Shown here piece after piece: positions 13,792 through 64,000 of a DNA stretch of 64,000 bases. Within the stretch, counting starts at the first letter, position 1. Every line of letters starts with the position of its first letter. The stretch is from Peribolospora baueri. Its lineage: Eukaryota. The notes beneath the pieces are model-generated. The model was given only the letters and a program-made list of their open reading frames with translations, made no database searches and was not told the DNA's origin. The translations under genes and the position numbers were made by a program. The DNA is taken from NCBI GenBank assembly GCA_029717555.1, contig JAMDHS010000016.1, positions 62,001 to 126,000 of the forward strand. Direction: 5' to 3'.

Positions 13792-15751
13792 ATGGAGTAT
13801 CCCGGCCAGTACCACGGCCAAGAACACGAACAACAGCGACAGCAACAGCAGCAGCAGCAGCAACACCAGCATCAGCAGGAGCAACAGCAATATCAGCAGC
13901 ACCAGTACCAGCAGCAACAGCAACAGCAACAACAGCAACAACAATATCGACACTGGCACCAATATCAGCCATTTCATCCTCAACACCAACACCAACACCA
14001 ACTCCAACCCGCACCCAATCCTCCCTCCCACCCCGTCTGGCCCTCCGAACTGCCCGCCGATACCTCCTCCCTGACCCACGTCCCTCTCCCCGACGACGCC
14101 CACGCCCTGTCCAACTTTGCCCTCTCCCTCGCCATGTCTCTTCCTCCAACCCCCGCCGACGCTCACGCCTTCTATCCGCCCCTCCTCCCTTCCAACGCCT
14201 TCTCCTCCCCCACCGCCATCGGCCTCGCCGTCTCCGCCCCTGATCCTCGCCTCACGACGGCCGCCGGCGGCGACCAACACCAATGGGCCCCCGCCGCCTT
14301 CCTCCACCCGGTCGCTGCCCCCGCTACCACCCCCCAGCCCTCGCCCTACGCCCACACCGCGCCCCTCCTCACCGCCTACCCTTCTTCCCACCTCCTCCTC
14401 ACCCCTCCTCCCACCGCCCTCCAAGCCCCCCCGATGTCCACCCCCGTCTCTTCTTCCCCCGCCCCCACCGCCACCGCGTCCTCCCCAGATCGCCCCAGGA
14501 AGATGGGCCGCCGCATCCTGGCAGAACACGCAAAGTTCTACGACTACCTTGTCGACGTTCAAAAGCCCGTCGTCCATCTCGACCTCCACCTTGACGACCA
14601 GCACAAAGCCACCCAATCCCCCGCGTCGACGACGACGATGACAACGACAACGACGACGACAAAGAGGTGCATGTTCTGTCGCGAGTGGGAGTTTAGCCAC
14701 CTTCCCAAGTTTCTCGATCACCTTGTCGATAGGAGCAGAAAGTATAGGGATAGGGGACATTCTGGTCCCCTGTTTGAGATGGCCAGGCAAGGGGCCTTGG
14801 AGATCCAGACGGCCAAGAGCAAGGAGCGCTCAAAGTCGGCCTCTTCGGCCTCTGCAAAGCTCCCCGGTCCGACGCCCCCGGATCCCGCGCCCGCGCCGTC
14901 GACCGAGGACGTCGACGACAAACTCGTCCCCGCCGACGGTAGCACCACCACTATCATCACCACCACCACCACAGAAGACCTCCTCCCGCCCGGCACGGCC
15001 GGAGCGCCGGTGTCATTGGTGCGTTGCCGCTCCCTCGTCACGCTCCGTGAGCGTGCGCACCTCGCTAACCGCGTCTCCCGCCTCGCGCGCCGCACAGACC
15101 ATGCCCGCTTTTTCCGCGTCGGCACCCTCCCATCCGCGCACCCCATCCTCCTCCCTCTCCACCCCCCGCCCCTTGCACGCGTCCCAAGTGGACGTCGTCC
15201 AGCAGCTCACAGAAGCCGTACGGTCCATCCAGTCCGGCATGTCCACCATCCAAGCCGACCTGGCCAACATGAAGAGCAACATGGTCTCCCGCGACGACCT
15301 CAACCGGCTGCTCTCCGTCGCTGGCGTCGCTCTCGCTGGTCACGGTCACGGTTCCGGCCCCGGCCCCGGCACCGGTGGCGGCGGCGGCGGGGGTTCAGCC
15401 GGCGGAACCGACTCGGATCGGTCCGCCTTTGCAACCTACACCGCGTCCCACACTGGCACCGGCACCGGCACCGGCACCGGTTCTGGCTCCGGCTCCGGCT
15501 CCTGGTCCGCTTCTACTCCTTCCTCTTCTTCTTCTGCCCCGTATGGCGGCCACAACTTGTCTGCGGCGGCTCACACCCACCGTCACTCGTCCGACTCGTC
15601 TCCGCCAGCGCCAGCGTCAGGGCAAGGCGTATTGGCAACGGCGTCGTCGTCATCATCGTCGTGTACGTTATGCGTTCCCCATCCCCCTCCCTTCCTCCCT
15701 CCCTTCCTCCCTCCCCTCCTCACAGCCGGAGGCGGAGGCAGCGACCGCTGA
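13792..15751 (+). CDS. Hypothetical polyQ/Pro-rich protein with a CxxC...H motif and a short coiled coil; 2 exons (intron about 15019-15097)
   Basis: ATG 13792 MEYPGQYHGQEHEQQRQQQ...; CMFCREWEFSHLPKFLDHL; a gtgcgt...gctaac...cacag intron joins ORF 13582-15843 to ORF 14723-15751. Confidence 0.6.
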
Positions 15752-43864: not shown

Positions 43865-44776
43865 GCCCGTGTTTCCTCTCTTGTCTAGTCTTGTTGTTTG
43901 TCTACCGCTGTCGAGGTCGGCTCTCATTCGTTCGGCTTCATTCATGTCAGTCACGGGAGGTTCTTTCTTTGTTTCCTGAGTGAGTTGCTCCGAGCGCTCC
44001 TCTTCCTTTCTGCTTGCTTTTTCGTCCGCCCCTCGTCCCAAGTTACCCCTGTCGAGTTTCCCCGTTAGTTTATCAGTACCGTCCGTCTGCTGCCCCATGT
44101 CGACCGCTAGCCATGTATGTAATGAGATTTTTTGAGAACAAGCGCGATTGGGCGTCGAGGGCGAGTGACGGTACTGATTTGAGATGGCAAGGCCAACGAT
44201 GACCACCCCAGGCTGACATGCGCCGCGGGGAGTGCTGCGGCTGCCGACAACCTGGCGGAATCCATCACTGGCTACTCTAGTGCTCGCCGAGCCGGCGTCG
44301 AGAGCGGCTCGCGCGATCTCCTCGGTTGCCCTCGCCAGTCGGGAATAGGCCTCGACGCCGCACTTCTCCCAGATGTGGCCCCCAGTTTCCCCAGACGCTC
44401 CCTAACCTCCTAACCGTCTCCTGAAGTCTGTCCTCGCCTCGCTCTTCCCTCCCCTTCTTTAAGCACCTGCAAGACGACGTTTTGGGGCGCCAACTGCCAA
44501 AAAGGTACACCGGCCGAAACGTCCGAACGCGCAGTGCATGCGCGGCGACTGCGGCAACAACTCGTGGCGCGGTCCACCCCCACACCTTCGTTCTTGTTGT
44601 TCTCTCCACTGACACTGTCGCTTTGCGCAAATACACGTTGTTCATCGTTTGTTGTCGTTGTTGTCGTTGTTGTCGTCGTCGTCATCCTCCTCGCCGTCGT
44701 TCGTCTTGTCGACCCCAGGCGCTCATCAGTTGGGCATCGGAACTCCACATCTTTTTGACCGCTAAGAGAGACGACC

Positions 44777-47154
44777 ATGTCTTTCTTCTCAGAAGCTCAA
44801 GTGGACGACACCACCCTCCTCCTCCTCCTCCTCTTCATCCTCACCCTCATCCTCTCCGTCTACCACTCCCGCCTCTATGCTCCCCTCACCCACCCCATCG
44901 TCCTTGGCAGGCAGGCCGACTTTGCTAGAGTGCGCAACAACGGAGAATCGACTGTTTTGCGCAACTCTAATGCTCCTCACGGTTTTCCGCTCGCTCATGC
45001 TCCCGAGACGAGTGTCAGGAGGCCCGAGGACTTGCTGGCGGCCAAAGACGGGCGTGTCGACCTTTTTGAGACAAAGGTGCGATTGCGGTTGCGATTGCCC
45101 GCTGATCGTCTCGGGCGCCCTGCTGACACGCTTCCTACGTCGTCGCCCCGCAGACTACAAAGGCGGAGCTGCTCAACCGCGTACGTGCCTTGCGAGCCGG
45201 CCTCATGAGCCTCACCGGCAAAGGCGCTTCCGATCTTTTTGTCGTCGCGTCCTTGGCTGACTGTGCTGGTGGGTTGACCAGGCTCGGCGGTCAGACGATG
45301 TATCCGAGCTGACCTTCCATCGTGCCGCGCTCTTTTCCTCAGAGCTCCTCGTCGCCGAGCTGGCCGTCTCCCGCCCTCTTCTACTCCTCCCTTCTCATAC
45401 CACCGTCCCCGCCCTTCCCACCACCCCGGGTCCACTGGCAACTTCCCTCGTCTCCCTCCCTCACCTCCCCGCAGCCCTCATCCTAGACCTACCCACCGCC
45501 GCCTCCCTCGTCACCGACTCTGCTCGTCTCCACCCGTCCTCCCTCGTCGTGCTTGTCAACTTTGAGGAAGGAAGGCAGGCCGGCGTGTTCGAAACGGTCA
45601 AGGAGAGCTTGAGGGAGAAGGGATGGAAGGCTGTAGGGTTTGAGGACGTGATCAGGACGGGAGAGAGGAAAGGCGAGGATGACCACCAAGAGGCGGCGAA
45701 TGAGAAGGAGAAGGAGGACGGAGGTTTTGTTGAACTCGCTACGGGAGATAGGGAGATGCGTTTGCGGATCAGCCAAGAGGTGAGTCGTATCTCTTCTTGG
45801 CCCGACCTCTCCGAACGTAGTGCTAATTTAAGCTATGCCACACCTCCTTTGCCACGATCACAGAACATCCTCTCCGGCGTGGCCTCCATCATGTCCCTCT
45901 TCCCAGCCCACGACGTCCCCTCGGACAAGGACGTGGTGCTCACGTCCTTTGGCCTCGACCAGCCCGTGGGTACGAGCCTCGGATGGATGTGCGCCTATAC
46001 TGGCGCTGCATTGAGGAGCGCTGCGTTTTTGGATGGTAAGCTAGGCCTGTCGGTTGGACGAATGACTTTTTGAGTCGCTGGCCGAGAAGGGGTGCTGACT
46101 CGTTTGCATGCTGCGCTCTCAGATGAGGAAGAGACCGACGCTTCACTCGCTCAGAAGCTGTCAAAGAATGCGCCGACGGTGCTTTTCGTGTAAGCGGCGA
46201 TCGGCTAAACTCCCCTGCTGATGACGGGCTCACAGGCGTTGTTATTCTTTCCCCACTTTTGGCAGCACCCTCTCCCACGCCCGTCTTCTTAATTCCCTCC
46301 TGACGCCCAAATCCCTATCGCCCCTCCACCGCCTCGGCGAGCGCTTCAAGCTCGTACGTTTGCGTCACGGTGCCTATGTCAAAGATACCCTCTGGGACCG
46401 GCTCGTGTTTCAAGGTCTGCGCAACAAGGTTGGCCTCGGTAGTGTGAGGGCAATCGTCATCGTCGGAGATGGTGAGTCGTCGTGTCCATCCTTGCATCGG
46501 CTTTGTCCTCGTGCGGATGTCTGGCCGTTCGTTCATCGCGCGTAAACCTTGCTCCCAGGCTTCTCCTCGACGCCCCAGCACCTACTCGACTCCCTCCGTC
46601 TTCGCCTCGGCACCCCAGTCCTCAACGCCTACCTCCCCATTTCCTCTCCGAGCGGTCACCAATTGGCCTCCGCACCCGTCACCTCCTCCCACCCATACGA
46701 CCTCCAAGCTTTCATTGAGGATGAAAACTACGAGGCAGGAGGAGGCTCTGGGACGGCAACGGCAACGCACGTCGGCTCCCCTTGCGTCGGTTGTGAGCTG
46801 AAGTTGCGATTGGACGATGCCGAGGCGAAGGGAGAGAGCGCGTTTGGGCCGGGAGAGGTGAGATTGGTCGTCCGATCGTCCAGTTTGTCGGCTTTTCTCC
46901 ATGCCCTGCCTTAGGTGTCAGAGGTCACTAACGAACGGACCACCGACGCCCCTTACACCGACAATATACAGATCCTAGTCAGAGGCCCCATCGTCCTCGC
47001 TCCATCCCCGTCAGCACCAGCCGCCGCTGGTGCTTCTTTATCTTCGGGCTCCGAACAGAAGGCATGGAGCGACGGAGGGTGGATGTCCACCGGCGACCGT
47101 GCTTACATTCGTTCGAATGGCACGTTGAGGGTCGTTGGGAGGGTGGGCCAGTGA
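44777..47154 (+). CDS. Acyl-CoA synthetase-like (ANL superfamily) protein with N-terminal membrane anchor, degenerate P-loop and no C-terminal subdomain
   Basis: N-terminal TM; HPIVLGRQADFARVRNNGESTVLRN; DTLWDRLVFQGLR; HVGSPCVGCELKL; GE|ILVRGP; WMSTGDRAYIRSNGTLRVVGRVGQ*. Confidence 0.75.
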
Positions 47155-47499
47155 TCGGCCCTTACCCCGACGACTTGATTCATTAATCAGTTCGCCTTCA
47201 TGTCTTTACGACAGCCTGCTGGCGTTGCTTGCGGTGGATGGATAAGAAGGAAAAAAGAGAAGAGAAAAAAATGCGTGGTGTACGCTAGCAGGTCTGGTCG
47301 ATTTTCTCCTTTTTTTTTTCCGCTTTTATGTGCCCACCCCCCCTCCGGGGCCTTTGGTGGGTTTTTTCTCTCGCCCCCCCTTCCGTCCGCATCTCGTACA
47401 TGCGCTGCGTCCGTCGCCTTCGTCTCGCTTGAACTCCGCTTCCCGAGTCTCAGCGGTCTCTGATCGCAAAAAAGAGAAAAAGGAGGCTTTCCTACGCAG

Positions 47500-50197
47500 T
47501 CAACATGTTGTTATTAATACTCATGACTCAACGACTGTACAGGAAATGGTCAACGAGGCAATGGAGAGGCGACTGCGTAGCAGTACCCTCCCTACCTCAG
47601 GACCTTCTTCTGAAACCGCTAGTAGTACCTCCAAGGCCACTTCCAGCAGATCATCGCTGCATGTACTCAAATCCTCGGAACCTTCCAGGCCATCCAAGGA
47701 TAAACCCAGGGACAAAACAAAGCAGCAGAAGAAGAGCTCCAAAGACCAATGCGCCAAGAAGAAAAGGCAGGACCCTAAAAAGTCCTCCACTTGGTATGTA
47801 GGCCCTCGCTTTAATGTGAGAAAAATGGCTACATATCCAGACATCTTCTTTCGCGCTACCCCCGCAGAACGCGCAAAGTTCGTATACCGGCATTCGTCCC
47901 CCTTGTTTATTGACACCCTAGTCAAAAACAATGAGGTACACAACGTTGCCGGTAAACCTCTGTCACTCCAGGTCAAACGGACCCTAGCTTTCAATATGAA
48001 GTTTATTCCGAAACCTAGAATGTCAGACACCGAATGGACTACCTCTATTGAGGACTTCGAACGACGTGCTCGCTGGAGATGGTTTTTCCCCGATAAACCA
48101 GATGTTGAACCTTTCGTCCCAAGGTTTCACATTCCCAGCCAGACCCCCGCTCCTAAACAAAGTCACCGTTTTGAGCGCAGCCTCGCTGTCGGCCGTTCTG
48201 CGTTAATGACAGCGATTCATACTGCTGCCAGGAATCGTCCTCCGACGGCCCCAAACCTCGGTAAAAGGACTTGGACTGCTCTTCGTGAATTCCTATCAGA
48301 TGGAGACACTCTGGTGCTCCCCACTGATAAGAACTTCGGAATGGCCATTGTCTCCGAGACATGGTATTTCAACGAAGCGCAAAGGCAACTGAGCGAATCG
48401 AGCTGTCTAAGCCATTACAAACCCTAACCCAAGGGCTTGGCTAGCTACCCTGTACCGATAAGTAGTCTGCCAGTTCTGAAGCGTTACGAATGTACCGCGT
48501 CAGTTCGGCCTTAATAAAGGCCGATTTGACAGCTACTGGATGGTAGGAGGACCAGGGGATGTATTGATAAGCGTTAAGGCTCTTCTGGAAGATTCGGGTT
48601 CCGAGACCATCATTGGAGAGGTGGGTGAAGGGGTTGGCCTTCACCAACACTTCCACATCCAGGAATTCAAGCTTTGTGAGGGAAGCTTTAACGCTTATCT
48701 TAGGCTGCGGGTGGATAATTGCCAGAAGCGGGCGAAGAACGTCGAGGACGTCATTTCCGTTCCGCTGGTTGCTTGTGAGGGCAACCACGGCGAAGATATC
48801 GTCAATGTACCTGGCATTTGTACATCACTTTTGCCTGGGGAAGCAGTTTCGAGATGAGCTGTTGCTCATGCCAAGCCATGAAGAGGTTAGCATACGCTGG
48901 TGCGCAGCTAGTCCCCATGGCTGTTCCTCGGATTTGCTTGTAGGTAACCCCGAAGAAAGTGAAGTAGTTGTTCTAGAGGACTTGGGTGAGCAAGGAAAGG
49001 ATGAGATCCTTTGTGCGTTGATCGTACCCAGACTTGGAGATGACGGAGCGTAGTGTTCGCAACCCTTCCCGAGTGGGAATGGAGGGATACATTGCCTCAC
49101 CGTCGCCAGATACAAGGCAAAGCCGCTGTGTCGGCGAAATTTGCCGGGATAGGTTGGTGATCCCTTTAACAAATTCCTTGGAATCACGGAGGATCCAGGG
49201 GTAGCCGGGCAGAAGCGGTTGCAGCTTATAGTCGATCCATGCAGATGCCTTTGACCAGAAGGTATCGAATCCAGGGACGATGGGGCGTCCGGCGATGGGA
49301 TTTTTATGGATCTTGGGAATCAGTTTGAACTGCGGGAGGCGTAGATCATTTCCGGTTAAGAGGTCCTCGGAGGAGAGTAAGCACTTCCTTTCTTGGGAGA
49401 AAAGGGAAGACCGGTAAAGCTCTGTGAGGCGATCTCTTCTTTCAGAGACTCCAAGCAGGAAGGTCTTCCTCAGTCTCAATTACTACACTCTCCGCGAGCG
49501 AGCCCTCTCAGACGCACACCCGGCTGAAAGAGAGACGAGCGACGCTACGAAACCGCCACCACGACTCGTGTTGAAATCCTTTTACAATCCCATCTGGGAT
49601 GGAGTCGATTTGCGTCCCGTCTGGGACCTTTACCTCTCTCAATGGGTTGATCTCGGGTTCGTCTCTCTCGGGGCACTCGGATCATCAACTGTAAAAGGAA
49701 GGCGCGTAGCCTCGGTGACTTCTTCAACGCGTCAAACAAGAGATCTATCCAGGGGAGTCGCGTTAAACGCATCCAAGTTTCAGACTTTGCTCGACCCACA
49801 TCAGGGAAGACATCGCCTCTGAAACCTCTGATATGGAGATAGCCGCCCACGCATGCCGAACTACCTTTCTCGATAAACTCATTTGGGTCAGGCGAAAGGA
49901 GCTCGAGCTCCTCACCTGTCTACAAAAAGAGGAGAAAGTCGTACAGCAGCTAGGCCAAAGCCTTCGCGAAAAAGCAGCCCCCTTAACCGCTATGGCTCAA
50001 GTGCCCCCAGACGTCTCTAGAGAGCTACGAAAGCGCTCGCACAGAGTCCTGATATGGGGGTCATAGACGTCTGGGGGCACTTGAGCCATAGCGGTTAAGG
50101 GGGCTGCTTTTTCGCGAAGGCTTTGGCCTAGCTGCTGTACGACTTTCTCCTCTTTTTGTAGACAGGTGAGAAGCTCGAGCTCCTTTCGCCTGACCCA
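47500..50197 (+). mobile_element. Decayed Penelope-like retroelement, no GIY-YIG endonuclease visible (Coprina/Athena-like), with internal inversion and terminal inverted duplication
   Basis: Intronless and less GC-rich than the flanks. Plus strand: LAFNMKFIP, DFERRARWRWFF, LVLPTDKNFGMAIV...YFNEAQRQLS. Minus strand RT: PQFKLIPKIHKNPIAGRPIV, LVSGDGEAMYPSIP, YKQIRGTAMGTSCAPAYANLFM, RYIDDIF, LEFLDV, YQYIPWSSYHP...FIKAELTRYIR. Plus strand C-terminus LVLKSFYNPIW. Left boundary approximate. Confidence 0.9.
49884..50197. repeat. Long inverted repeat: 133-bp arms (49884-50016 and 50065-50197), one mismatch, 48-nt spacer
   Basis: Block-by-block reverse-complement comparison; the only mismatch is C49910 opposite A50171. 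Confidence 0.98.
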
Positions 50198-50552
50198 CTA
50201 TCGTTTTCATTTCCTCAGTTGCGCGACGCGAATCGCGCCGTCGGCGCGCGTCTGCTTGTCCTTGTCCTTGTCCTTTCTTCGTCCGCGTTTTTCTTTTTTT
50301 TTTCCCCCTCGTTTGTCAACTACTTGTTGCCCAAGTATTCCCCTCCGCCTTCTCACACGCGCACGACGGTTATCCTGGCTGACGACGTAGGCGACTGCGT
50401 TTGCAAACCCTTGACCGGTGTTGGTGCAAGGTGGAAGGTGGCACATGCGCTCAATGCATGTGACATTGTAATGCCTCCACCCCTACTGATGACACGTCGC
50501 ACGTTGCCTTTCCGACTGAAAAGCAATCTCGCGATTGGAGACGTGGACAAAG

Positions 50553-51721
50553 TCAAGAAGCATGGATCTAGAGTAGAACAAAAGAGGAGTGGAAAGCGGA
50601 GAAGAAAAGGGTCAGCCGAGAACTGTTTACTGATCTTCCTCGCCCTCAAATCCACATTCCATTCGGCTCACCTCGGCCGCCAAGCTGATCCACTCCCTGA
50701 CGCTTCGAACGTACGCGTCCGCGCCCTCGTCGGCCGGTCCGTCGGGGTGCCAGAGCGTGAGCTTGTCGAACGCCGCGATTGGCCGGAACGTCCTACTCAT
50801 CTCCGCAGCTTCCGCCGTGGGGGGGCCGGAGATGCCAGGTCCTAGAGAATCGGCCGTCGGTTGTCCTCCGTCAGGCTCGCCACCGTCCTCTTCATCAGGA
50901 GTGTGCGAGGAGCCATTTACGCTTCCCTCCCCTCTTTCTTCCTTGTGCCGGACCGAGCGATGAAAGCGAGGGACGGCCACAGTGGGGACGTCTACATCCT
51001 CCCGAGCTCTCCTTTCCGTCGCACTTCCGTCACCCTCGGCCTTGGCCGTCCCATTATCCTCTTCATCGTCATCGTCTTCTTCATCCATCGAAAAACGCTG
51101 CACGGTAGCCCTAGTAGGCGCAGGGGCGACCGGAATCGCTTTCTTGCGCGGCGACCGACGTAGTGGAGCAGTGGATCTCTCCTCCTCCTCTTCCTCCACG
51201 GCGTCTCTTCGCGCCCGTTTTGCTGTGCGACCCGATCCCGTCTGTCCACCAGCGGTGCGGGCGGTCTTCTTGGAAGGGAATCCCGCAGGCTCATCATCGT
51301 CGCTTGCTGTCCAAGGCCGGTCGACTCGGACAACCGTACCCACGTAGCCAGGAGGTGGGAATAGCGACAGACCGTAAAGCGCTCGTCCGCGGAAGGAGGA
51401 GAGGAGAACTTGATCAGGCGAGGTGATCGTGGCAGTTGTCGTCCCCGCCGCCTTCGTCGATCCTTCCTCCGCTCTTTGATCTGAAGACGAAGACGACGCA
51501 TCCACACTCTCCCGTATCTCCGGCTTCGTTTGCAGGCCCCCCTCTTCCGCGACCAGGGGCCGGGGACGAAAGAAGGCGTCGACGTCGGCGCTGCCGTCAT
51601 GAGCTATGTGGACAGGAAGTAGGTGAACTTCTAGTGGAGGGGAGTTGGAAGTCCCTGTCCGCGCTGACATCGATCCTGGCGTGTCGAAACAGGCGAGACG
51701 AAGACGAGATGAGGGCGACAT
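50553..51721 (-). CDS. Ribonuclease H2 subunit C (Rnh203/RNASEH2C)-like
   Basis: VHLLPVHIAHDGSADVDAFF; SSFRGRALYG...PPPGYVG; FDKLTLWHPDGPADEGADAYVRSVREWISLAAE|IHAS*. Confidence 0.85.
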
Positions 51722-52808
51722 GGTGTGAGAGGTGGCCAACAAGGACCAAGACGATGAGGAAGACAGCGTTCTCTCGCAGCGCGGCGCGATCCGACGCGTA
51801 AATGAGATAAGCACGTGACCAATCCTCGGCACAAGCACCTCGTCGCAAGCGCACATCGCCAATTGCGACAGGGGCGTTCTCTGCAAGACGGTGACGCAGA
51901 AAGGTGCGCAACAGCTGCAGTTGACGCCTTGTCTCGTCAATTTGGGGCTCATTCGCTCATCGCTTGTTCGGTGGATCGACTTGCAAACCGAGCAAGCCGG
52001 CCCCGTCCCGCGCCGGCGCCGGCCGGAAGCTCGGGCTGCTGCGGCGTGTCCTTCAAGCCTCGCCGGCACTCGGGCCAATCCCATCGCCTTTTGAGACAAC
52101 ACCAGTTTCTATCCGCTGATATGACGTCCGATCTCGGGCTCAATCTCCCTTCACAGCAGTGTTATGGGGGGGGCAATGGACTAACTGGTCGATGAGCTCG
52201 TGGATTGGGCACTGGTTGACTGACTGATAGTGGCCTGGTTTTCTGCTTACCTTTCCGAATGCGTTCCGACTCCTCCTTAACCTTGCTTCGCTTCACCTCC
52301 AGCAAGGCGTAATCTTGCATAGCCTTGATCGACACGGCGAACGCCGACGTCCAACATCCGAGTCCGGCGCCCGGCGTCCGTGGCCCGACCTAGCTTGTCC
52401 ACGACATTGGGGCTCACCCCGAAGACTGTCAACGGGTGGCGACGGCACTACCGCCGCTAATCCGGCGACAGAGGCTCCGCGAATTCCAAGTCTTCTCCCA
52501 CATGGCTTCGGACGACTTTCCTCTCCTCCTCTCCTCCTCTCTCCCGTCGCCCATAGCCTACACTTCCATGCCTCTCCGACCCTGTCTCAAGCAGTCAGAT
52601 GAGACGGGTTTGCCCGTTCTCCCGGGTCGCAAAAGTATATATGAGCGACTGAAACGCTATCCCAGCTCATTCTTGTTCTCCCCACCGGTCGCCACAACAC
52701 CTACAACCTTCGTCTCTTCATACTCCCTTCATAGATTGTCTAGACCTAGACTCGTACACGATTCTTCACCCTCATAGACTTCGCCTGCACTCACTCATCA
52801 CCAGCACC

Positions 52809-62255: not shown

Positions 62256-64000
62256 TCAAGCGCCCAGCCTGAGAAGCTCCCTGACGGCCATCGCGGCCTC
62301 TCCCTCCTCCCCGACCGTGTAGCGCACCTCGCTCTTCTTGAGCCCATTGAACTGGGACGCGGCGCAGATGGTGTAGGCTCCCATGTCCTCAAATGCTAGC
62401 CAGTCGCCCACGTCCAAGTCCGCCGGCAGGTAGGCGATCTCGCGCACGCAGTCGATCGAGTCGCACGTCGGGCCCCAAACGGAGCAGGGGATGAGAGCGC
62501 CCGATGCGGTCTTTCCCGTCGTCTTATCCTCCCCTTGGACGTCTTCGTGTCTAGTCCAGCTGCTGTTGAAGCGACGGCGAGCGTCGAGGAGCTCCGGGGA
62601 GAGACCGGGGGCGGCGATGGAGGGGTCGTAGACAAAATTGCCATGGAGTGTGAGCACTTTCGGGTGCACGACCTGGTGATCAAACATGATGCAGTTGAAC
62701 GCGCCGTAGACTCCTTCGTTGGCGTAGTCTGATGAGGAAGGAAGATGACCAAGAAAGAGGAAGAAGCAGGGACGGGAATAGCGAGATGAGTTTGCGAGTT
62801 GATGACCCATACGGCAGCGGAGACAGGCGGACAACTTACACATCACCAGAGGCTCTTCCTTCGCCTCGTCAGCTTGACCTTTGGTCTCGATCTCGGTCTC
62901 GTCAACGAGAGCAGGAGGCTCAGGCCTCGCACTCTCCACGACCTCGATTTCCTCCGCTTCGGACACTCCTCCTCTTCCAACGTCCTCGTCGTCCTCGATG
63001 CCCAACACGCTCCTCCGAGCGATGATGTTGGCGGCAAGCGTGAAAGCCTTGCTAACGTAGTACCTCCCTGGTTCGGCGATGATCCTCACCCCGTCGGGCG
63101 AGTCGGCCTCCGTGCCCCCGGGGCCGAAGAGGCTGTCGGGGAAGAACTCCTGCAAAGCCGGACGGAGCACTTGGGCGATCTTCTCGAAGTTGTCGTGCCC
63201 GTATCCACCTCCCACGTCAAGGAGGCTGAATCGGTAGCCGGCGTCCTTACCCATGTCGAACGCAGCGCGAGCGCGTCGGAGAGCGTCGATGAAGCTCGTC
63301 GGGTCGTAGCAACCCGACCCAACGTGGAAGCTGACGCCCACGACGTCGAGATCAAGTTGCTTGGCGGCACGGAGGAGACGGGGCACGTTCTCGAGAGGCG
63401 AACCGAACTTGAGGCCGAGTTTGCAAAGCGACTTGGAGTCATCAGTGAGGATACGTACGACGAGCTGGGCACGAGGGTGGAAGCGTGCAATCTTGCGTAG
63501 CTCGTCGACGTTGTCGAACGTCGTCAGACGGACGCCCGCCCTGGCCGCGTGGCGGACGAAGGAACCCGCCTTGCAGGGGTTGGCGTAGATGATGCGAGAG
63601 GGGTCGACGCCGAGGTCGAGCACCGACTGGATCTCCCCGTTCGAGGCGCAGTCGAATCCGGCCCCGCACGCCGCGAGCAGGCGCAAAACATACGGGTCGG
63701 GGTTGCACTTGACAGCTAGTAGGAGAGAGGCCGACATTAGGCCAGTCATCCGATCAGCGGCGGCCCACCAGCACATCCGGCACATAATCAGCCTGCTCGA
63801 TCGAACGCGGGCTTACCATAGAAAGGCTCAACACGAGGGAGATGCTTCATCCACCTCTGATGCTGCATATACACCTCTCCGAGGTCAGCAATGAAAAATG
63901 CACTCTCGCCGTTCTCCTCACAGCTGTGGAGGTCGATGTCCCTCAGGTAGCTATGCAGTCGGTCGCGCACCGAGCCATCGTAGACTGGCTCCAGCGGTGG
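62256..64000 (-). CDS. SPE1: Ornithine decarboxylase (5' end beyond the window)
   Basis: AFFIADLGEV...PRVEPFY|AVKCNPD (PLP lysine), FDCAS, IIYANPCK, TFDN, SFHVGSG, LDVGGG, IIAEPGRY, WGPTCDSID, MGAYT. Confidence 0.97.

Follow-up and report, generated by a model that had tools for sequence, protein, structure and literature searches.

No retroelements are more closely related to telomerase than Penelope-like elements (PLEs) without an endonuclease, which have been reported almost only at chromosome ends. One clade of this kind, Coprina, was reportedly described by Gladyshev and Arkhipova in 2007 from fungi, protists and plants. We analyzed a stretch of 64,000 nt (64 kb, hereafter the window) from contig JAMDHS010000016.1 of Peribolospora baueri, in which one dead copy of a fungal PLE without an endonuclease occupies the locus at 47.5–50.2 kb. 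This identity is firm. We also consider it likely that the copy is of the Coprina type, that its host genome belongs to the Ustilaginomycotina, and that it was captured at an internal DNA break, where fold-back priming left scars.

PLEs comprise clades with a GIY-YIG endonuclease and the endonuclease-deficient clades Athena and Coprina. Two papers give Coprina as an endonuclease-deficient clade of fungi, protists and plants (PMC8557442, PMC13159263). The latter describes Coprina-1_Alen as an element of ~4.5 kb that occupies 13 chromosome ends, is bordered on each side by telomere repeats and encodes a coil, a nuclear localization signal (NLS), the DKN motif, the reverse transcriptase (RT) and a thumb (PMC13159263). 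Elsewhere, fungi are reported with endonuclease-deficient PLEs only (PMC3846280), and the hammerheads of fungal PLEs are placed within terminal repeats (PMC4209133).

The locus resembles Coprina in its fungal host and in its open reading frame (ORF), which has a basic, NLS-like region, the DKN motif, RT motifs 1–7 and a thumb, and no GIY-YIG. Its full-length relatives are likewise of fitting size (~1000–1250 aa, on contigs of 3.9–5.4 kb, compared with ~4.5 kb for Coprina-1_Alen). It differs from Coprina in that the window copy lies between genes without telomere repeats on either side, lacks reverse-complement telomere repeats at its 3' end, a hammerhead and terminal direct repeats, and is truncated, internally inverted and capped by a hairpin. 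Athena, from bdelloid rotifers, shares the same endonuclease-less architecture but belongs to animals, usually has two ORFs and forms giant telomeric composites (PMC13159263, PMC8557442); nothing similar is present in the window. The canonical endonuclease-bearing PLEs (Penelope/Poseidon, Neptune, Nematis and Hydra) have a homologous RT, with 34%–41% identity over the finger and palm, as well as the same post-thumb module, and they tend likewise to form inverted repeats with palindromic junctions (PMC3846280). They differ in having a C-terminal CCHH/GIY-YIG region, target-site duplications and animal hosts, and they form a separate clade in our tree.

Identity of the element

Stop-to-stop ORFs and direct reading of 47.1–50.7 kb revealed one retroelement ORF in three blocks (A–C; Table 1). 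Alignment of 16 database relatives to the locus (tblastn, E 1e-35 to 1e-61) was far beyond chance, and the RT blocks listed in a preliminary description made from the sequence alone, from TDKNFG to YIPWSSYHP, were all present. Each full-length relative mapped to block A on the plus strand, block B on the minus strand and block C on the plus strand, in its own residue order, so the middle kilobase is a clean inversion of one element and not a pile of fragments. The inversion proposed in that description thus stands, but its bounds (48405–49483) do not; the block runs rather from ~48450 to 49464, with filler at its junctions. The DKN motif (TDKNFG) lies at 48323–48340 on the plus strand and YIDD at 48798–48809 on the minus strand. 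The tail of block A reads ...LVLPTDKNFGMAIVSETWYF...SHYKP, and its frame is open back to 47246, with homology only from 47765 onward.

The 16 relatives have 72 invariant columns in common; with the blocks joined into one read-through, and X at the breaks, the copy retained 65 of them. The catalytic Asp is present in both motif A and motif C. A phmmer search of 1.84 billion representatives, using a 225-aa finger/palm piece with the TAG read as X, returned 8562 proteins at E ≤ 1e-3 and 20 at E ≤ 1e-30, the best of them 51% identical. PLE proteins that bear GIY-YIG matched the RT of the copy at E ~1e-24 to 1e-20. The features by which a PLE is recognized, namely a homologous RT, an upstream DKN motif, RT motifs 1–7 and a thumb, are all present. 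The separate ORF pieces, being too short, gave either no Pfam match or only RVT_1 at E 0.03; a profile search of the PDB gave only weak generic RT matches (TERT at E 0.18), and a PDB sequence search gave no useful match. G+C content is 51%–53% across 47–50 kb, compared with ~57%–62% on either side.

The copy is broken in several ways. The in-frame TAG at 48973–48975 in block B and the frameshift just ahead of RYIDD, both pointed out earlier, were verified, and the frameshift was placed between 48817 and 48812 (48813–48816). An additional frameshift near 49663 splits the C-terminal module between frames 49418–49819 and 49651–49839, both of which were found by a hidden Markov model (HMM) of the module (E 3.5e-10 and 4.9e-6), bringing the ORF lesions to one stop codon and two frameshifts. 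The copy is also truncated at its 5' end: homology begins at 47765–47867, equivalent to residues 354–562 of relatives of 1011–1256 aa (low-complexity filtered), and the N-terminal part of the relatives has no counterpart elsewhere in the window. No further copies of the element were found in the window; a weak match at 15209–15337 (E 0.01) was dismissed as noise.

We observed that the copy belongs to an endonuclease-deficient PLE lineage, as had been proposed. We built an HMM from the endonuclease domains of 23 relatives in which the PLE-type GIY-CxxC-YIG motif is present; it found nothing among 1498 six-frame ORFs of the whole window (best E 0.68), in agreement with the earlier remark that no GIY-YIG lies beside the RT. 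The Pfam GIY-YIG domain was found in none of the top 54 database matches. Nuclease domains (E ≤ 0.05) were absent from all 10 full-length close relatives examined, compared with GIY-YIG in three out of three endonuclease-bearing controls, which were lower-ranked PLEs. The full-length relatives (1011–1256 aa), likewise without an endonuclease, end where the window ORF ends; their last residues align to 49749–49764, and none aligns past 49764. The restored frame stops at 49840–49842, which leaves no space for another domain.

The stretch LVLKSFYNPIW...SLGDFFNASNK at the end of the ORF is a conserved post-thumb module, whose HMM matched 103 of the 260 PLE proteins that we fetched and which lies upstream of a true endonuclease domain in 18 of those 103. 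In this lineage the end of the module is the end of the protein, which therefore stops where endonuclease-bearing PLEs continue into a zinc finger and GIY-YIG. A reading of the module as a decayed GIY-YIG was ruled out (hhalign probability 0.05%), and the module also precedes real endonuclease domains. The C-terminal CCHH and GIY-YIG typical of canonical endonuclease-bearing PLEs are not present, as the ORF stops after this linker module. The N-terminal GIY-YIG characteristic of Naiad/Chlamys was not found in the 354–562 N-terminal residues of the relatives (Pfam at E ≤ 0.05 and the endonuclease HMM), which stood in for the copy because it has no N-terminus. We noted that, among the database relatives (P0007–P0266), the module YNPxW...LGD..N..NK is common to fungal-type PLEs without an endonuclease, whose proteins end with it, and to endonuclease-bearing PLEs, where it precedes the endonuclease. 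Many further relatives end directly after a similar module, and endonuclease-less PLE proteins therefore look common in public data.

We inferred an RT tree from the DKN-to-thumb region of 210 of the 260 fetched proteins, together with the re-inverted window read-through (FastTree; 211 rows, 405 columns). The window copy was placed in nested groups of six (support 96), 18 (91), 69 (90), 72 (82) and 77 rows (89), and the 18-row group takes in proteins from Phenoliferia and Puccinia sorghi. No endonuclease-bearing row fell within the 77-row clade, all 43 lying outside it, so grouping with endonuclease-bearing PLEs, named earlier as one outcome that would count against the proposed lineage, was not seen. 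A second tree (IQ-TREE, LG+C20, quick search) used a sample of 62 from the 211 rows. The near clade was taken in full (18 rows), and the remainder was picked at random: 16 of the 59 other rows of the 77-row clade, 14 of the 43 endonuclease-bearing rows and 14 of the 91 others. This tree recovered the same five-row sister group (SH-aLRT 94) and put the 14 sampled endonuclease-bearing rows in a separate clade (support 100), joined by one 431-aa row without a detectable endonuclease. Both trees are unrooted, and named sequences of Coprina, Athena and TERT are absent from their rows.

Of the named relatives, those nearest to the element are Pucciniomycotina proteins (Phenoliferia sp., 46% identity; Rhodotorula toruloides, 41%; Puccinia sorghi, 40%). 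A language-model search with one relative (P0010) ranked Basidiomycota clusters first (0.92 and 0.88), followed by Rotifera clusters of ~1100 aa (0.88 and 0.87), which we take as a lead only. A scan of prokaryote genome contigs found no relatives. To judge by the best matches of an ornithine decarboxylase encoded in the window (62259–63812, minus strand), the host is an Ustilaginomycotina fungus: the protein is closest, at ~54%–57% identity over its whole length, to those of Tilletiaria, Violaceomyces, Ceraceosorus, Tilletia and other Ustilaginomycotina. Our partial coverage of the literature found no published report of a PLE in Ustilaginomycotina; Coprina is mentioned in Microbotryum by Craig et al. 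(PMC8557442). The suggestion that the copy defines an undescribed family did not survive in its strong sense, given that public proteins, named Pucciniomycotina entries among them, are 40%–51% identical over the RT and that fungi are reported with endonuclease-deficient PLEs only (PMC3846280). The element belongs to an already known kind, and the main point of interest lies in the scars at its junctions.

Table 1. Coordinates (window positions) of the element, its junctions and the adjoining genes
Feature	Position	Strand	Remarks
Last upstream ORF segment	46915–47154	+	weak acyl-CoA synthetase likeness, NCBIfam best E 2.2e-4
Block A, 5' part of the ORF	47546–48424	+	from first ATG; Ser/Lys-rich basic linker, conserved N-terminal PLE region, DKN motif
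Left inversion junction	48425–48449	.	by eye against relatives' sequences
Block B, RT motifs 1–7 and thumb	48450–49464	−	inverted; PKIHK..GRPIV, LVSGD (motif A), GTAMG..APAYANLF, RYIDD, FLDV, YIPWSSYHP
Right inversion junction	49465–49474	.	by eye against relatives' sequences
Block C, C-terminal part of the ORF	49475–49842	+	post-thumb module (LVLKSFYNPIW...SLGDFFNASNK); second-frame stop 49840–49842
3' untranslated region	49843–50016	+	last 133 nt (49884–50016) are hairpin arm 1
Hairpin loop, 48 nt	50017–50064	+	
Hairpin arm 2	50065–50197	−	inverted copy of 49884–50016; likely right end of insert
RNase H2 non-catalytic subunit C gene	50627–52108	−	PF08615, E 8e-21; converges on insert

Inversion junctions and 3' hairpin

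Filler was assigned by eye against the sequences of the relatives. The left junction holds 19–25 nt, and the right junction 10–16 nt, that can be assigned to neither neighboring segment. Both junctions are palindromic: CCAAG-GG-CTTGG lies at 48429–48440 in the left one, and AGGAAG-GT-CTTCCT at 49457–49470 spans the right break. The right filler CTTCCT is the reverse complement of the adjoining AGGAAG, and the left filler GCTTGG is the reverse complement of 49451–49456, the sequence that lay next to block A before the flip. Templated palindromic filler of this sort would be the expected product of break repair or of template switching by a polymerase.

The left junction also carries the sole CCCTAACCC of the window (1.5 C-strand telomere units), at 48422–48430, exactly at the junction and including the last codons of block A. 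This 9-mer is expected 0.23 times per window and occurred at least once somewhere in 22 out of 100 shuffled windows. It can be read as AAACCC from the element followed by TAACCC from the filler, a local duplication (AACCC-T-AACCC); alternatively, it could be a trace of telomere-type priming or healing.

At its 3' end the copy carries an inverted repeat of 133 nt (49884–50016 and 50065–50197) around a 48-nt loop, the arms being 99% complementary with one mismatch in 133. The arrangement is tail-to-tail, running from the 3' untranslated region through the loop into the reverse complement of that region and then into the flank. The RNA folding energy of the hairpin region is −311.6 kcal/mol, compared with a mean of −131.8 kcal/mol for shuffled sequences (z = −33.5). 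The base of the hairpin is marked by two occurrences of a self-complementary octamer, AGACGTCT, one at the end of arm 1 (50009–50016) and one at the start of arm 2 (50065–50072).

The ORF at 49833–50066 had been taken for a coiled-coil-like C-terminus. It reads one hairpin arm and the loop, no relative aligns past 49764, and a mirror ORF on the other strand (49997–50197) reads the same peptide through the inverted repeat, so we ruled out this ORF as protein sequence.

Probable capture at an internal break and other possible origins

The copy lies within ~750 nt of spacer between convergent ORFs, and its placement between two convergent genes, a plus-strand ORF series that ends at 47154 and a minus-strand RNase H2 subunit C gene that ends at 50627, agrees with the original account. 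So does the lack of an obvious target-site duplication: no direct repeats of at least 8 nt were found at the presumed ends. The longest candidate was 7 nt long (between 47380–47580 and 50150–50300) and lay off those ends, and a T-rich pair of 29 nt at 47303 and 50288 (76% identity) was rejected as a duplication because it is low-complexity sequence. (TTAGGG)2, with up to one mismatch allowed, is absent from the window.

No hammerhead was called by Rfam at 44–54 kb (E ≤ 1), and a motif scan found no canonical CUGAUGA...GAAA core inside the element. Two core-like CTGAGGA...GAAA sites on the minus strand (49473 and 50218) were judged by eye not to be hammerheads, and a CTGATGA...GAAA site at 50486 was set aside because it lies in the flank, lacks convincing helices and is absent from the Rfam calls. 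The terminal repeats in which a hammerhead would lie may be missing from this truncated copy.

An element without an endonuclease would need a free DNA 3' end, usually that of a telomere. With neither endonuclease nor telomere at hand, a chromosomal break would be the simplest way to obtain a primer, here most likely an internal double-strand break between the two convergent genes. The 3' region of the RNA would contain two self-complementary octamers, AGACGUCU, 48 nt apart, on which the 3' end could fold back and prime itself, giving the tail-to-tail repeat. Incomplete copying would account for the 5' truncation, and end-joining without a target-site duplication would seal the insert. The internal inversion would stem either from the same template-switching event or from a later two-break repair. 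Endonuclease-independent capture with fold-back priming would fit the 5' truncation, the lack of a duplication, the filler and also the tail-to-tail hairpin with its 8-nt palindrome, and we regard capture at a break as plausible. In LINE-1, Morrish et al. are said to have found endonuclease-independent insertions at DNA breaks in 2002. Those insertions are alike in lacking a target-site duplication, in truncation, in filler and rearranged junctions, and in a site not chosen by an endonuclease. They differ in the class of retroelement, and the route is an exceptional one for the endonuclease-bearing LINE-1, whereas it is the only one for an endonuclease-less PLE. The PLE literature already makes room for such events: the authors of PMC3846280 allow for capture at DNA breaks, describe PLEs as rich in inverted repeats with palindromes at the junction, and state that 3' self-priming on a sense template would yield a tail-to-tail repeat.

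A bolder version would make the locus the footprint of self-primed, endonuclease-independent retrotransposition by a telomere-specialized PLE at an internal break, with fold-back on AGACGUCU, template switches that produced the inverted block, and a repair that cost the upstream acyl-CoA-synthetase-like gene its ~100 last codons. We think this unlikely. If true, the locus would directly document, at the genome level, the self-priming proposed as a habit of PLE RTs.

Several points weigh against capture of a Coprina-type element at an internal break. The hallmarks of telomere-attached Coprina (flanking telomere repeats, reverse-complement telomere repeats at the 3' end and a hammerhead) were not found at this locus; a copy that is truncated and rearranged, however, need not keep the location or the terminal features of Coprina. 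The "Coprina-type" label rests on the host, the architecture and the named fungal neighbors, in trees that contained no named references. The interstitial position, claimed from the start, holds within the 64-kb window only, and the distance to the chromosome end lies beyond it. Finally, the hairpin and the inversion may be native to the element, made at insertion, later events or assembly errors.

Quite improbable, in our view, is a telomere-primed insertion at a chromosome end that was internalized later by fusion, subtelomere duplication or translocation, with loss of the telomeric flanks. Published Coprina copies do lie at chromosome ends between telomere repeats (PMC13159263), and the only CCCTAACCC of the window, the sole hint of a former end, falls exactly at the left inversion junction. 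Yet (TTAGGG)2 is lacking over 64 kb even with one mismatch, the spacer that holds the copy separates two convergent and apparently ordinary genes, and the 9-mer is also readable as the duplication in the junction filler described above. An artefact of assembly or sequencing could instead have produced the inversion (48450–49464), the terminal 133-nt palindrome or both, the real copy being colinear with a single end. Assemblers are known to have difficulty with palindromes and inverted repeats, and inverted and tandem PLE structures often failed to assemble (PMC3846280). The same paper argues that such structures are real, the junctions carry unique filler on both sides of the inversion in place of a clean flip, and the hairpin arms differ at one base; these observations are not decisive, and we consider an artefact very unlikely.

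The lack of an endonuclease would be irrelevant if another retrotransposon, for example a LINE, had supplied the endonuclease and RT that inserted the RNA of the element in trans. PLE and LINE machinery is known to mobilize cellular and foreign RNAs, in the cited case host genes in a rotifer (PMC3846280), but the same paper gives no sign of cross-mobilization of endonuclease-deficient PLEs and holds that fungi have no endonuclease-bearing PLEs. The insert itself lacks a target-site duplication and shows neither poly(A) nor a LINE-type tail at 50197, and we came across no second retroelement RT in the window, though no systematic search was made. We regard insertion in trans as highly improbable. 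The copy might also descend from an endonuclease-bearing PLE and have lost the domain individually, since its 3' end is rearranged and a loss of sequence there is conceivable. Its ORF, however, reaches the same C-terminal residues as relatives of 1011–1113 aa, which end there, an endonuclease domain occurs in none of the 77 clade rows, and no endonuclease-like ORF is present in the window, which makes a loss confined to this copy exceedingly improbable.

Capture at a break would place the copy among events that the field assumes and has rarely documented: a copy between ordinary genes suggests that such elements are also fixed away from chromosome ends, presumably at breaks. The junctions, where a hairpin folds back on an 8-nt palindrome and the inversion is bordered by palindromic filler, are raw material for understanding how a PLE RT finds its primer. 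A single dead copy changes little by itself; it would gain value once set beside intact copies and the unoccupied site, in this genome or in related ones. As transposon fossils go, the copy is an ordinary one, with scars that give a hint of its route of arrival.

Flanking genes and minor features

Upstream of the insert, a multi-exon series of plus-strand ORFs spans 44759–47154. Its last segment matches positions 343–372 of a 471-position model, ~100 residues short of the model end, and the subdomain that would form the missing C-terminus was found on neither side of the insert. Neither Pfam nor a homologue search with a 270-aa ORF identified the gene. It looks like a divergent acyl-CoA synthetase, and the usual P-loop appears degenerate by eye. 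The shortening could reflect a target deletion at insertion, or the gene may simply be divergent.

On the other side, the product of the converging gene is part of RNase H2, which removes RNA from RNA:DNA hybrids; its closeness to a retroelement is probably a coincidence. Far from the element and unrelated to it, a long CAG/CAA trinucleotide run (poly-Gln type) lies inside a large ORF at 13819–14009.

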